IMG/VR virus record: IMGVR_UViG_3300006854_000006 | Coordinates: 1-58,798 of that record | Reading direction: 5' to 3' (one strand) | Source of the DNA: a virus | Taxonomy: Duplodnaviria; Caudoviricetes | Length of the DNA: 58,798 bases | Shown: piece after piece, positions 15,894-50,764 of the stretch | Layout: each line of letters begins with the position of its first letter | Position numbering within the stretch: position 1 is the first letter of the stretch | Notes under the pieces: generated by a model | Told to the model about the DNA's origin: nothing | The model's database searches: none | The model's input: the letters and a program-made list of their open reading frames with translations, nothing else | Translations under genes and position numbers: made by a program

Positions 15894-15963
15894 TGGCGTT
15901 CGAATAGATTTGCGCGCCCTTCAACCTGCGACCGCGCCGCAAAATAATTATCTGACAAAACAC

Positions 15964-15992
15964 TTGACACTTGGGAAGAGTCGAGCTACACT
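15964..15992 (+). promoter_or_regulatory. sigma70-type promoter upstream of DUF932 gene
   Basis: TTGACA-17 nt-TACACT with AT-rich upstream element. Confidence 0.8.
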
Positions 15993-16071
15993 GTCTCTCG
16001 AAATGACAGGCGAGCCCCGCAGATGGTCGAAACATCCACGAGGCTCTAACTTCCAAAGGAGTATAGGTCCC

Positions 16072-16911
16072 ATGAAAGCTACGATCGATTCTAACCCACG
16101 TCCCGTCCGCCGAAATCAACCGTTGACCCTCGAGGAGATCCACCGCGCCGCGCCCTCGGCCTTTGCCGCGGAGCCCTACGGTGCGATGTCGTCGCGCTAC
16201 AGCTACATTCCGACGTCCACGATCATCGAGGGCATGCGCCAGGCCGGCTTTGCGCCCTTCGCGGCTTCACAGTCGGCCACGAAGATCGATGGGAAACGCG
16301 GTCACACGAAGCACATGATCCGCTTCCGTTCCCAGTCCTCGGCGGTCGCGCTCGGCGACACCTTCCCGGAGATCGTGCTGATCAACGCACACGACGGCTC
16401 GAGCGCCTATAAGCTGATGGCCGGCCTCTTCCGGCTCGTCTGCGCGAACGGTCTCGTGGTCGCGGATTCGATGATGGAGTCGATCCACGTCAAGCACACC
16501 GGCAACGTTCTCGAGCAGGTCGCGACGGGTTCCATGGAGCTCGTCGCGCGGATGCCCGAGGTGATCGATGCCGTAGCCCGCTGGAAGGCCATCCAGTTGT
16601 CCTCGGCCGAGCAGACGGCTTTCGCCGAAGCCGCACACGTCCTGCGCTTCGCGGATGCGGAGGGTTCCGTCACGACGCCCATCACGCCCGGCCAGCTGCT
16701 GACACCCCGACGGGTTGACGATTCCCGCTCGGACCTTTGGTCCACCTTTAACCGCGTCCAGGAAAATGTGCTCCGTGGCGGCCTGCGGAACTATCGGCGC
16801 AGCAATGTGCGCCGCGTGACCACACGTGCGGTGACGGGTATCGATCAGGACGTTCGGTTAAACCGGGCCCTGTGGACGCTGACCTCACGGATGGCGGACT
16901 TGAAGCGATAG
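16072..16911 (+). CDS. DUF932/DUF945 family protein
   Basis: AAGGAG RBS; SSRYSYIPT, HTKHMIRFR, INAHDGSSAY, GLFRLVCANG, DLWSTFNRVQEN, LNRALW. Confidence 0.92.
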   Translation: MKATIDSNPRPVRRNQPLTLEEIHRAAPSAFAAEPYGAMSSRYSYIPTSTIIEGMRQAGFAPFAASQSATKIDGKRGHTKHMIRFRSQSSAVALGDTFPEIVLINAHDGSSAYKLMAGLFRLVCANGLVVADSMMESIHVKHTGNVLEQVATGSMELVARMPEVIDAVARWKAIQLSSAEQTAFAEAAHVLRFADAEGSVTTPITPGQLLTPRRVDDSRSDLWSTFNRVQENVLRGGLRNYRRSNVRRVTTRAVTGIDQDVRLNRALWTLTSRMADLKR

Positions 16912-17060
16912 CTGGAAAGCGGGCGCCGGAAGCGGATCCGGCGCCTTCTCGAGGTTCCCGGAATTGGAATCGAACAAAAGGAGGAACAAAACAATGAAGA
17001 CCCGGAGGAAGAAAACGAAAGGCGTCCGGTTCGTCCTGGGGCCGGCGTGCGGGAGATGAG

Positions 17061-17261
17061 ATGACACCACAGGCGAAGCGCTGCCCCAATCACGGCAATC
17101 GTCGGGCGACCATGCGCGGGGTCTGCACGACCTGCTACAACGCCGTCGCACAGCGGGTGTCCCGCGGAGAACTAAGCTGGGCGGAGGCGGAAGCGCAAGG
17201 CCTCGTGCTTCCTCAGCAACCGCGCGGCCGTCCGCGAAAGACCTTCAAGACAGTAAAATAA
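17061..17261 (+). CDS. small zinc-finger/AT-hook-like DNA-binding protein
   Basis: RGVCTTCY and C-terminal PRGRPRK; GGAG RBS. Confidence 0.65.
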   Translation: MTPQAKRCPNHGNRRATMRGVCTTCYNAVAQRVSRGELSWAEAEAQGLVLPQQPRGRPRKTFKTVK

Positions 17262-17264
17262 TGT

Positions 17265-17293
17265 TTGACAAATACACTGACAGCGGCTATATT
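17265..17293 (+). promoter_or_regulatory. sigma70-type promoter for the tRNA
   Basis: TTGACA-17 nt-TATATT, 15 nt before the acceptor stem. Confidence 0.85.
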
Positions 17294-17308
17294 AGACGCA
17301 CGGTGGAC

Positions 17309-17404
17309 GGAGGGATGGCCGAGTGGACGAAGGCAACCGGCTCACAACCGGTACTCGGTGCTAGAACCACCGAGCGCGGGTTCGAATCCCGCTCCCTCCG
17401 CCCA
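17309..17404 (+). tRNA. class II tRNA with serine-type body and CAC (Val) anticodon
   Basis: Acceptor GGAGGGA/TCCCTCC, D arm GCC/GGC with GG, anticodon arm ACCGG-CTCACAA-CCGGT, 7-bp variable stem CTCGGTG/CACCGAG, T arm GCGGG-TTCGAAT-CCCGC, then GCCCA. Confidence 0.92.
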
Positions 17405-17549
17405 CCGGACCGAAGGGCACTGGCTCACAACCAGGGTCAGTATAACACCGTTTCGGTTTGCATCGGTCCCGGGGACTTCAATCGAATCGGGGGGGCTTTG
17501 AATGAAAAGCTGACGGCGGAGATGTTCGACAAGACGTGAGGCGCGCGAA

Positions 17550-17816
17550 TTATTTTTTGAAGTAGATGAGTAAGACACCGGCCGCCTGCACGATCAGCGT
17601 CGCCAGAAGGCCGATGACCATTTTCCAGCGGTCGTTTTTCGAGCGCTCCGTCGCCTGCTGCATGCTCACCAGCAGGTCGAACTGCTTGTTCGTGGAGGTT
17701 GTGACGTTCGCCATCTCGGCTTTCAGGGTGGCGATATCCCCGATGGTGGTTTTGATGTCCGGCGCCATCTCGCGAATCGTCTGCAGGGCCTGCAGCAGCG
17801 CTTGATCATCGCTCAC
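17550..17816 (-). CDS. coiled-coil protein with C-terminal TM helix (holin/XhlA-like)
   Basis: Hydrophobic WKMVIGLLATLIVQAAGVLLIYF then KK; last gene of the late operon. Confidence 0.65.
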   Translation of the reverse strand: MSDDQALLQALQTIREMAPDIKTTIGDIATLKAEMANVTTSTNKQFDLLVSMQQATERSKNDRWKMVIGLLATLIVQAAGVLLIYFKK

Positions 17817-18292
17817 AGTCCGCGCCGTTCCCGTTTCAGATCCGCGATGTATTGCTCGATTTGATCGATCCGCTCGTCAATACGCCGGTTTTTCAAAATG
17901 GCTTCTTTTTGTTTTTGAACCGCACTGCTTCGGATCGCGACCGCATCCCGAATGGCTAGCAGGAGTCGCTCGCGGATATCGCCTTTGTCGAGATAATCGT
18001 CGGCTTTGTTTTTCATCGCCGCGACCGCGGTTCGTGGATCGGAAAATCCGGTCAAGAGGATGAAACCGCCCTGATAGTCCTGCTCCCGCAACTGGCGGAC
18101 GCATTCGCTTCCTTGCATGCCGGCGAGTTTTTGATCCATCACAATGCAATCAATCGCTTCAGTATCGGCCAAGCGGAGGGCGTCTTCGCAGGTTTCCGCG
18201 TCGATGATGGTCAGATCGGGATCCTGGCGGACGAGGATTTCACGCACCAGGCGCGCGTCGTTCAGATCGTCGTCGACGAGGAGGATGATCAC
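17813..18292 (-). CDS. response-regulator receiver (CheY-like) domain protein
   Basis: ILLVDDD, IVMD (phosphoacceptor), LLTG, ADDYLDK; GTG start overlaps upstream TGA. Confidence 0.92.
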   Translation of the reverse strand: MIILLVDDDLNDARLVREILVRQDPDLTIIDAETCEDALRLADTEAIDCIVMDQKLAGMQGSECVRQLREQDYQGGFILLTGFSDPRTAVAAMKNKADDYLDKGDIRERLLLAIRDAVAIRSSAVQKQKEAILKNRRIDERIDQIEQYIADLKRERRGL

Positions 18293-18465
18293 GCGGAAGG
18301 AGGGGGAGACTGGAAGTCCGGATCGCCAGTATAGGCGGCGTTGATGGAATTCCGGATTTTCAACATAACTTTCTTCAGCGCGGCCCGTTTGTCGGGATTC
18401 TTGATCGTCGCCAGAATGGCCGCCGTTCCCATCGTGATCCAAAAGTCATAATCCATCCCGTTCAT
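18289..18465 (-). CDS. small putative membrane-associated protein
   Basis: AAAGGA RBS; FWITMGTAAILATI then basic amphipathic helix. Confidence 0.6.
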   Translation of the reverse strand: MNGMDYDFWITMGTAAILATIKNPDKRAALKKVMLKIRNSINAAYTGDPDFQSPPPSA

Positions 18466-48912: not shown

Positions 48913-48976
48913 GACAGATCATGAAATTGGATGGATCACGTTCACCCCATCACCGGCGGCACCAACCGTCGGCCAC

Positions 48977-49017
48977 AAAAAACGGGCGACGGGAAAGGTC
49001 CATGAACCCCGTCGCCC
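48977..49017 (-). terminator. intrinsic terminator upstream of initiator gene
   Basis: GGGCGACGGG/CCCGTCGCCC stem followed by GTTTTTT on the - strand. Confidence 0.7.
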
Positions 49018-49185
49018 AGGGACAGAGAGAAACACTCGCCCGACTGAAAAACCTGACTTACAATGCGGGCGGCCCGGATGACCATCGCACCGGTCATCCA
49101 GGCCTCGCCAAAACCATTCACGGGTAAGCGTGGACGGCCTGACTCTCTTTGATTTCGTGCCGGCGCTCACCCCATCGGAGGATCG

Positions 49186-50376
49186 ATGCCGCGGAAGCGC
49201 ACGGGGAATATTCAACAACGCACCACAACGAGTTTTCGGATCCGCTATGTCGACGTCGACGGCATCCGACAGCAGGAAACGATTACTGGAACACGCGAGG
49301 ATGCGGAACGCGAACTGGCGATCCGCCTGGGGGAACTCGCGAAGGGAATTCCGGTATCGTCGAAACCGAACACGGTCCTCTTTGGCGAGCTCGCCAACGA
49401 TGTACTGGTCGACTATGAAGTGAACGGATACAGCTCGCTGGACGACATCGAGACTCGTTTTCGGCTGCACATCGTTCCAGTGTTCGGCAACCGCAAGGCG
49501 GCGCAGATCACGACGGCCCAGATCAAACACTACATCGTGCTGCGGCAGAAGGAAGACGCCGAGAACGGCACGATCAATCGGGAACTGGAGGCGATCCGCC
49601 ATACGTTTAATCTGGCCATCCAGGGCCGCAAGTTGCTCTTCGCGCCATACGTGCCGAAACTCCGGGAGGACAACGTCCGTGAAGGCTTTGTCACGCGCGC
49701 GGAAATGGAGCGGTTGTCCGTGTTTCTCGCTCCCAAACCACGCGCCTTTGTATGGTTCCTTTTTCTGACCGGCTGGCGGGTCGGCGAAAGCCGAAAGCTG
49801 GAATGGCCCGCGGTGGATTTCGATAACAACGAAATCCGCTTGCATGCGGGCCGAACCAAAAACCGGGATGGCCGGGTGTTCCCGATGAGTGATGAGTTGC
49901 GCGTGTTGCTGCTCGAGTTGGCTCGATTGGCGACGCCCGAATCCGGCGAGGGATCCGGAGTTCGCACGCTGCCCTATGTGCCGCTGACCGGCCGCGTCTT
50001 CACGATCGGCGAGTTTCGGAAGAGCTGGGCCCGGGCCTGCTACAACGCCGGCCTCCCCTGCACGATCCACTACAAACGGGATGCCGCCGGCAATCTGGTC
50101 ATCGGAAGTCAGCGGGGAAGTAAAGGCCTGCCGGTGATCGAACGGATTGAGGCGAAGCGGACGCCTCACGATCTGCGGCGCAGTTTCGCGCGCGAGATGG
50201 ACCGTCAAGGTGTCCGGCAAAGCGCGATCATGAAGCTCGCGGGGTGGAAAACCGATAGTGTTTTCCGGCGCTACAACATCGTCAGCGAGGTCGACTTGAG
50301 AGACGCGATTGATACGATGGATGCGGAGCGCAAAAGGGCCACGAAAAGGGCCAAAGACGGAGGAGAGGCTGATTAG
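49186..50376 (+). CDS. int: tyrosine integrase
   Basis: GGAGG RBS; TGWRVGE (R), TKN (K), HDLRR (HxxR), AGWK, RRY (Y). Confidence 0.96.
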   Translation: MPRKRTGNIQQRTTTSFRIRYVDVDGIRQQETITGTREDAERELAIRLGELAKGIPVSSKPNTVLFGELANDVLVDYEVNGYSSLDDIETRFRLHIVPVFGNRKAAQITTAQIKHYIVLRQKEDAENGTINRELEAIRHTFNLAIQGRKLLFAPYVPKLREDNVREGFVTRAEMERLSVFLAPKPRAFVWFLFLTGWRVGESRKLEWPAVDFDNNEIRLHAGRTKNRDGRVFPMSDELRVLLLELARLATPESGEGSGVRTLPYVPLTGRVFTIGEFRKSWARACYNAGLPCTIHYKRDAAGNLVIGSQRGSKGLPVIERIEAKRTPHDLRRSFAREMDRQGVRQSAIMKLAGWKTDSVFRRYNIVSEVDLRDAIDTMDAERKRATKRAKDGGEAD

Positions 50377-50406
50377 ACTCGCATAACTTGCTGATTGGAC
50401 AAGTCC

Positions 50407-50448
50407 GGCCCCGTAGCTCAGAAGGATAGAGCAGCGGTTTCCTAAACC
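50407..50448 (+). other. attP core: 5' half of tRNA-Arg(CCT)
   Basis: GGCCCCG-TA-GCTC-AGAAGGATA-GAGC-A-GCGGT-TTCCTAA-ACC, truncated in the 3' anticodon stem; lies between int and xis. Confidence 0.88.
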
Positions 50449-50452
50449 TTCG

Positions 50453-50764
50453 TCATTTCTTTGCAAACCGTTCTCTCCATTGATGCGGCAGGCCGGTTGA
50501 GGTTTTTGGGCCCCGTTGGATTTGGGCCAGTTTTGGCGACTCTCGTGGAGCAATAGGGCCCGATAAAGGGCCACGATTCTCGTCGTCCTGTACCGGCATC
50601 TTGGAGGCTTCGATGAATGCCTCCAGGTCTTCTTCCCGCACTTGAATCCGGCGCCGGCCGCCGAGACGGATCCCTTGCAACTGACCGGTGAGCACGAAGT
50701 CGCGCGCCGTCGAATAATCCACCCGAAGTCGTTTCGCCACTTCATTGAGAAAAAGAATCGCCAT
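50453..50764 (-). CDS. xis: excisionase / recombination directionality factor (MerR-like HTH)
   Basis: LFLNEVAKRLRV..GQLQGIRLG..IQVREEDLEAFI; converges on attP. Confidence 0.85.
   Translation of the reverse strand: MAILFLNEVAKRLRVDYSTARDFVLTGQLQGIRLGGRRRIQVREEDLEAFIEASKMPVQDDENRGPLSGPIAPRESPKLAQIQRGPKTSTGLPHQWRERFAKK

Follow-up and report, generated by a model that had tools for sequence, protein, structure and literature searches.

A serine-type phage tRNA with a valine anticodon and a partial copy of its own gene in the 3' trailer

Sequences that flank a mature stable RNA can pair with each other in the precursor, as in the processing stems of rRNA and in the tRNA precursors of phage T4, where this pairing leads to an ordered maturation (in T4, the 3' end and then the 5' end). 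Repeats of tRNA sequence are also known from the att sites of tyrosine integrases, where they extend from the crossover point as far as the tRNA's 3' end and bracket the whole element. More generally, tRNA genes are known that have a partial tRNA copy or a folded trailer behind them, and such arrangements are poorly understood. The TLRs of E. coli (rtT of tyrT-tyrV, and rrA, rrB and rrF behind 5S rRNA) are short elements directly behind a tRNA or rRNA gene that are co-transcribed with this gene and contain a copy of part of it, their hallmark being that the last 18-19 bp of the element repeat exactly the 3' terminus of the gene upstream. Most have no known function, and their function has stood unassigned since 1978 (PMC8144298). 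Irregular Ser-type tRNAs with non-serine anticodons, the allo-tRNAs among them, have been described from phages and soil metagenomes, and some of them may be non-translational (Mukai et al., PMC5389517). Allo-tRNAs are described as having a 12-bp acceptor branch (8/4 or 9/3) and a long, Sec-like D stem with a tetraloop, and one allo-tRNA with a Val anticodon is among the irregular tRNAs reported (PMC5389517).

The phage locus presented here resembles each of these systems in part. As in TLRs, a short element directly behind the gene contains a copy of part of it, but the copied part is an internal segment that lies at the 5' start of the trailer, and the 3' parts of gene and element are unlike. 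As with att copies, a direct repeat of tRNA sequence that includes the anticodon arm is found in a phage encoding a tyrosine integrase, but the repeat runs 5' from the anticodon loop, and the two copies lie 83 nt apart with only the rest of the tRNA between them. As in other stable-RNA precursors, the two flanks of the mature RNA can pair, although the predicted phage helix extends just 6 bp past the acceptor stem and has one A/C mismatch. Finally, like allo-tRNAs, the phage tRNA combines G73 and a long variable arm with the anticodon of another amino acid, but its T stem has 5 bp, its acceptor stem 7 bp, and its D arm is that of an ordinary tRNA-Ser. The sections of the allo-tRNA paper considered here make no mention of a copied anticodon arm in a trailer (PMC5389517).

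The locus differs from TLRs in that an internal part of the gene, anticodon loop included, has been copied, that the precursor is predicted to be closed, and that body and anticodon of the phage tRNA disagree. The reading that we prefer, to which we give a probability of about one half, is that the duplication gave rise to a trailer stem-loop that acts in cis on the tRNA precursor, and not to a second display of the loop. Should trailer and leader govern maturation, the locus would offer a compact model of the tuning, by a phage, of a tRNA that potentially mistranslates or is non-translational; should the copy be a scar only, the finding is an ordinary one, and the tRNA is still worth an experiment. 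Table 1 lists the features discussed below.

Table 1. Features of the tRNA locus and divergence between the window and the sister phage L002
Feature	Position	Strand	Basis or remark	Window versus L002
Sigma-70-type promoter of the tRNA gene, TTGACA-17 nt-TATATT	17265-17293	+	11/12 hexamer matches	
Leader strand CGGTGG, nearly the whole putative leader	17301-17306	+	Complementarity, fold	
Type II tRNA, tRNA-Ser body, G73, anticodon CAC	17309-17400	+	Rfam, 60.6 bits	
Repeat copy 1: 3' part of D-loop, 3' strand of D-stem, 5' strand of anticodon stem, anticodon loop and 2 nt	17324-17349	+	Alignment	
Trailer strand CCACCG, over CCA-like bases	17402-17407	+	Complementarity, fold	
Trailer stem-loop within the conserved block (predicted)	17406-17460	+	Outer pairs 17406-17415/17451-17460 and 17416-17417/17448-17449	
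Repeat copy 2, 22/26 identical to copy 1	17407-17432	+	Alignment; exact 11-mer at 17422-17432	
Hairpin CTGG-CTCACAA-CCAG, alternative register	17420-17434	+	Allowed by the sequence; pair probability 0.005	
Extended -10-like motif TGTTATACT, without a -35 element	17439-17447	-	5/6 hexamer matches	Identical
Closing-helix 3' arm TCGGTCC, outside the conserved block	17463-17469	+		T17463C and T17467C in L002 and in the X3/X4 contigs
DUF932 gene, fourfold sites				23/181 differ
66-aa gene, fourfold sites				10/41 differ
Upstream spacer	16912-17060			22/149 columns differ
Promoter and leader				1/46 differ
tRNA				0/97 differ
Trailer	17405-17461			1/57 differ
Segment after the trailer	17462-17510			16/49 columns differ

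The tRNA and its genomic setting

The window, i.e. the whole stretch of DNA that was analysed, comprises the full genome of a soil virus, 58,798 bp long and bounded by direct terminal repeats. Judged by its gene content (portal, terminase, integrase and others), it is the genome of a tailed, temperate phage. Tailed-phage genes encode a portal protein, a capsid-protease fusion, a terminase and a collagen-like fibre protein, and the genome also encodes a tail-fibre-like protein, two DNA methylases and two HNH endonucleases. The tyrosine integrase gene (49186-50376, plus strand) is located 32 kb from the tRNA locus and is wholly overlapped by a 608-aa open reading frame on the minus strand (48919-50745), which has no Pfam match and is probably spurious. 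No serine recombinase is encoded in the genome, and a Pfam scan of 30 larger open reading frames found neither an aminoacyl-tRNA synthetase nor a tRNA-dependent enzyme among them.

The tRNA gene is the only one in the 58.8-kb genome. It has its own strong promoter in front, whose spacing (the -10 hexamer ends at 17293) implies a transcript start at about 17299-17301; the promoter of the sister phage differs by one substitution, within the spacer. The gene sits in the convergent gap between a plus-strand module, which includes DUF5131, DUF932 and a 66-aa zinc-ribbon-like open reading frame and ends at 17261, and minus-strand genes that begin at 17550. A receiver-domain (response-regulator) protein, in which no output domain was recognised, is encoded close by on the minus strand (17813-18442).

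ARAGORN calls the tRNA at 17308-17404 as 'Val CAC' and adds an eighth acceptor pair, C-1:G73. Because the same pairing is possible in 29 of 47 cellular tRNA-Ser homologues, we read the acceptor and T stems as 7/5. The predicted fold is a type II cloverleaf with a 7-bp acceptor stem, a 3-bp D stem with an 11-nt loop, a 5-bp anticodon stem with the loop CUCACAA, a variable arm of 7 bp and 7 nt, and a 5-bp T stem. Assignment to the allo-tRNAs (8/4 or 9/3) was rejected on the dimensions of the T stem, the D stem and the D-loop.

The long variable arm, the Ser-type D arm, the acceptor and T arms and G73 are those of a bacterial type II tRNA-Ser body. A pattern made from the acceptor, D and T arms of the phage tRNA retrieved 47 cellular tRNAs, every one of which has a Ser anticodon (GCT, TGA or GGA) and G73. 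The anticodon of the phage tRNA is CAC and falls outside the serine set (NGA or GCU). To our knowledge, this mismatch between a Ser body and a Val anticodon is a stranger and more unusual object than the repeat in the trailer. The combination of a Ser-type D arm with the loop CTCACAA had no match in the genomes of 185,579 species; among viral contigs it was found in the sister phage alone, and among metagenome contigs in four stretches, namely the contig of the sister phage and three near-identical contigs from another locus.

The phage might be thought to aim such a tRNA at host proteins while avoiding GUG in its own genes. Such avoidance, as a sign of a host-directed mistranslator, was rejected: GTG makes up 31% of the Val codons of the phage (19.7 per 1000 codons, from 42 open reading frames of at least 150 aa), so that a Ser-charged tRNA(CAC) would strike the phage's own proteins too.

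Several other tRNAs with related features were encountered. A second, unrelated Ser-like CAC tRNA of 87 nt, also with the loop CTCACAA, is present in L104 (105-191), L105 (3791-3877) and L106 (1219-1305, minus strand). Its context is bacterial and chromosomal, with genes for hydrolases and an ABC permease upstream. Its acceptor stem has mismatches at two of seven pairs, and it is followed by a canonical hairpin and T-run terminator, without a second CTCACAA. A 197-nt contig of run X2, from the same kind of sample, matches 17359-17402, which spans the variable arm, the T arm and part of the acceptor, with 8 differences in 44 positions and has the loop CTTATAA (anticodon UAU) upstream; it may represent a further tRNA of the serine type whose anticodon is not a serine one. 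Further short contigs carry an ordinary tRNA-Ser(GCU) with a T arm nearly identical to that of the phage tRNA.

A partial duplication of the tRNA gene

The initial annotation had drawn attention to the 11-mer GGCTCACAACC, which is present at 17339-17349 and again at 17422-17432 and occurs nowhere else in the window, even when one mismatch is allowed. The repeat is longer than was seen at that time. When 17324-17349 is aligned with 17407-17432, 22 of 26 columns are identical, with one gap (19/22 for the ungapped repeat, 17328-17349 versus 17411-17432), and the score of 30 was reached by none of 2000 shuffles (15.5 +/- 2.2). Since the identity reaches 15 nt further 5', into the D-loop and D-stem, the copies share descent, and the alignment identifies the 26-nt repeat as a partial duplication of the tRNA gene. 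The similarity ends past the loop: the rest of the tRNA (17350-17404) and the following trailer and flank (17433-17540) align with a score of 14, which 745 of 2000 shuffles equalled. No partial tRNA copy was found behind cellular tRNA-Ser genes at the 43 of 47 loci with enough flank, where the one high score belonged to a complete second tRNA gene.

Several familiar identities for the trailer element were considered and rejected. It is not a second tRNA or a pseudogene, as there is no tRNA match in 17395-17560 at E values up to 10 and relaxed ARAGORN searches gave none on the plus strand and a single mitochondrial-mode match on the other strand. Membership in the TLR/RtT group was rejected on the unrelated 3' parts (the score of 14 given above), and no Rfam family, RtT included, matched the trailer. 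An att duplication left by an integrative element was likewise rejected: the repeat is internal and extends 5' only, its copies are 83 nt apart, and the integrase gene lies at 49186-50376.

The same geometry bears on whether the copies could be DNA sites. Both are short inverted repeats around the same 7-bp centre, they are 83 bp apart (about eight helical turns), and the genome encodes a tyrosine integrase, so a regulator or recombinase might bind them as a pair. The integrase gene, however, is 32 kb away, no third site exists in the genome with up to one mismatch, and the shared sequence is asymmetric, extending in the 5' direction only; of all the explanations considered, we give this one the least credence.

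Three stretches of the locus also look alike: GTGGACGGAGG in the leader and acceptor stem (17303-17313), GTGGACGAAGG in the D-loop (17323-17333) and CCGGACCGAAGG in the trailer (17405-17416). The leader resembles the D-loop at 10 of 11 positions, which may be due to chance or be a trace of repeated template switching.

Predicted structure of leader and trailer

The proposal of the initial annotation that the leader sequesters the tRNA's 3' end is well borne out by the predicted structure. The leader strand CGGTGG is complementary to CCACCG in the trailer and pairs with it in the minimum-free-energy fold, forming 6 bp beyond the acceptor stem, with the A/C mismatch adjoining that stem. As the -10 hexamer ends at 17293 and the start is placed at about 17300, almost the entire leader would lie within this helix. 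Pairing between the flanks involves 7 of 9 positions, 6 of them contiguous, compared with 0 to 6 in the 47 cellular tRNA-Ser homologues, and the helix over the tRNA 3' end is more extensive than in any of these genes. The tRNA 3' end (17400-17404) reads GCCCA, which none of the 47 homologues has (28 have GCCA), and it is the extra C that allows CCACCG to pair fully with the leader. The module as a whole (17299-17461) folds with a z score of -4.2, and none of 200 shuffles folded as well.

The trailer itself is predicted to form a stem-loop that directly abuts the 6-bp leader-trailer helix. In the minimum-free-energy structure of 17405-17472 (-25.6 kcal/mol), ACUGGCUC pairs with GGGUCAGU around the loop ACAACCA, so that the CUC of the copied loop is paired. 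The hairpin with the stem CTGG/CCAG that had been drawn as displaying CUCACAA is therefore not the favoured fold: its pair probability is 0.005, and forcing the display in the window raises the energy by 3.9 kcal/mol, to -21.7 kcal/mol, the corresponding cost in the sister phage being 2.4 kcal/mol. Together with the extension of the repeat 15 nt into the D arm, this burial of CUC in the predicted fold speaks against the earlier interpretation of the two copies as the same loop shown on two scaffolds. The helix GGACCGA/TCGGTCC, which had been proposed to close the junction around this hairpin, does fold in the window, with pair probabilities of 0.41-0.999 (GGACCGA lies at 17407-17413, which corrects the 17406-17412 given previously), but does not hold in the sister phage, where its 3' arm reads CCGGCCC and two of seven pairs are broken without compensation. 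The sister phage is instead predicted to close the domain by CGGACCGAA and UUCGGUUUG, and the same helix forms in the window when the conserved block alone is folded. The result is a stem-loop of about 55 nt (17406-17460), in which copy 2 is predicted to form the 5' strand and the inner hairpin pairs 17419-17426 with 17434-17441 around ACAACCA; it folds at -21 kcal/mol with a z score of -2.0 (8 of 200 shuffles as good).

These predictions suggest how a cis-acting trailer might work. A partial duplication of the tRNA gene placed a copy of the segment from the D-loop to the anticodon loop right at the start of the 3' trailer. Transcription from the promoter of the gene itself would then yield a closed precursor with both ends paired, in which the leader-trailer helix would force 3' trimming ahead of the RNase P cut. 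The trailer stem-loop would act in cis to shield or define the 3' end at the place where early (plus-strand) and late (minus-strand) transcription converge. Since the copied loop is predicted not to be displayed, mimicry of the anticodon loop has no part in this model. The element is located at the convergence of the plus- and minus-strand gene modules, and its start is found behind other upstream sequence in the X5 contig (matching from 17299 to 17421), which is also consistent with a cis-acting trailer. Against it, no intrinsic terminator was found in 16800-18000 (0 sites), the stem-loop being followed by CAUCGG and not by a U-tract. In addition, the substitution G17417A in the sister phage breaks the pair G17417-C17448 of the predicted conserved-block fold and would improve an extended version of the hairpin drawn by the initial annotation, in which it would turn a G-U into an A-U pair.

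The initial annotation had proposed that the trailer presents a second CUCACAA loop, which might either lure away an anticodon nuclease or a modification enzyme, as a decoy, or seed pairing with another sequence. The core of the repeat is exact over 11 nt, i.e. the loop and 2 bp on each side, which is mildly unexpected in a repeat with four differences elsewhere (p ~0.09, hand estimate). The C-to-T and G-to-A differences between the copies change the third stem pair on both sides (C:G in copy 1, U:A in copy 2) and leave the 4-bp stem of the hairpin paired. Moreover, a Ser body joined to a Val anticodon would be compatible with the body mattering less than the loop. The exact core, the third stem pair and G17417A, together with the lower cost of display in the sister phage, are weak hints in favour of such mimicry. 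On the other side, the identity covers 15 nt of D-arm sequence that would have no role in display, the display register is hardly populated, the sister phage does not keep the helix that would close the proposed junction, and the unrelated Ser-like CAC tRNA of L104-L106 has a plain terminator and no second CTCACAA. We know of no anticodon nuclease specific for tRNA-Val(CAC), and a search of the literature on decoys and anticodon nucleases, at the level of titles, found no such mimic. The pairing seed fares no better. The complementary sequence TTGTGAGC is indeed present at 1093-1100, where it overlaps a GTG at 1095 that lies in frame inside the open reading frame 1035-1463, behind GAGG, and is a putative start codon; however, the genome holds 2 non-self matches against 1.39 expected for all matches, and a seed was rejected because complementary 8-mers are at chance level genome-wide. 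Overall, we regard a second displayed loop as improbable.

A more elaborate version would combine these elements into a dedicated non-translational RNA. The Ser body with the loop of tRNA-Val(CAC) and the second, switchable stem-loop copy would then jointly serve as decoys or sponges, drawing off a host factor (a modification enzyme, say, or an anticodon nuclease of a defence system) by which the anticodon loop of tRNA-Val is read, and the leader-trailer helix would bar normal maturation and aminoacylation. We consider this very unlikely.

Conservation and exchange among relatives

Conservation in relatives carrying the tRNA had been set beforehand as a test of the original proposal, and the trailer up to 17461 is indeed kept in the sister phage and in the X3/X4 contigs. 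The element is carried by one sister lineage only, L002 (the same contig as L094 and, from its equal length, probably as L103), which counts against a cis-acting trailer, and by contigs of runs X3 (58 kb) and X4 (689 nt), which have the same variants as L002; conservation is thus measured on two distinct sequences, those of the window and the sister lineage, and all structures are predictions. Contigs of runs X2-X5 were compared with 16900-17800, and among them a low-depth contig of 151 nt from run X5 matches 17299-17421 at 122 of 123 positions, has a different sequence before 17299 and ends at 17421.

Divergence in the trailer (Table 1) is lower than at the pooled fourfold sites of the neighbouring genes (33/222; Fisher p 0.003) and in the right flank (8/46; p 0.006), and marginally lower than in the upstream spacer (p 0.05). 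It is not exceptional (p ~0.17, hand estimate) when set against the whole 94%-identical block 15946-17507, which has 79 mismatches and 7 gap openings in 1564 columns. For one sister lineage, the comparison demonstrates that leader, tRNA and trailer, as far as 17461, have been passed on together with hardly any change. The low divergence of the trailer could reflect either constraint or a recently exchanged cassette, and exchange may account for it without selection, which again weighs against a cis-acting trailer.

In the latter case the copy could be a neutral scar, a functionless partial duplication that looks conserved because a cassette of about 17232-17461 was recently exchanged between mosaic phages. 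The two genomes are in fact mosaic, with blocks of 94-96% identity beside blocks of 72-79%, and a boundary lies at about 17462-17510, right after the trailer, where identity falls from ~98% to unalignable within 50 nt (17462-17560 in the window, 5450-5600 in L002). Beyond it, L002 lacks the gene for an 88-aa membrane-anchored protein (17550-17816, minus strand), and identity in the receiver-domain protein is 59%. Substitutions are also missing from the final 30 nt of the 66-aa gene, and the X5 contig has the tRNA, the leader and the start of the trailer beside a different upstream sequence. Neutrality does not readily explain, however, that the 3' strand of the inner hairpin, GGGUCAGU, lies outside the repeat and yet pairs with 8 consecutive bases of the copy, that the plus strand folds better than its shuffles and the minus strand does not (z +1.08 for the trailer block, i.e. 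unstructured), or that conservation stops only a few bases from where the predicted stem-loop does. We treat a neutral scar as a rather unlikely alternative to the cis-acting trailer.

The conserved trailer DNA might also serve the minus strand, as an extended -10 promoter and the start of an RNA that runs back across the tRNA. The motif TGTTATACT, to which the initial annotation had pointed, is present, is the sole TGNTATAMT match in 58.8 kb and is unchanged in the sister phage. A single match is within chance (0.34 expected; 25 of 100 shuffles had at least one). Furthermore, divergence sets in at 17462-17475, where a -35 element would have to lie, the minus-strand RNA of the block is unstructured, no minus-strand gene follows, and no RNA run is listed among those containing the sequence. 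We consider antisense transcription very unlikely as the reason for conservation.

Searches for further relatives led back to the same lineage. A blastn search of GenBank phages with 17250-17560 gave no match. A 15-mer scan of viral contigs returned 19 stretches, one of which is the L002 contig, while the other 18 are without a tRNA and are therefore chance matches. Two tRNA patterns, the pattern of Ser D arm plus CAC, and a 21-mer of the trailer each found the L002 contig only among viral contigs. Among the 80 loci scanned next to DUF932-protein genes, L002 alone has the tRNA; the L003 locus, whose DUF932 protein is 64% identical, is not syntenic downstream. Unrelated tRNAs do occur elsewhere in DUF932 loci, namely a tRNA-Arg in L059 and a tRNA-Ile in L081.
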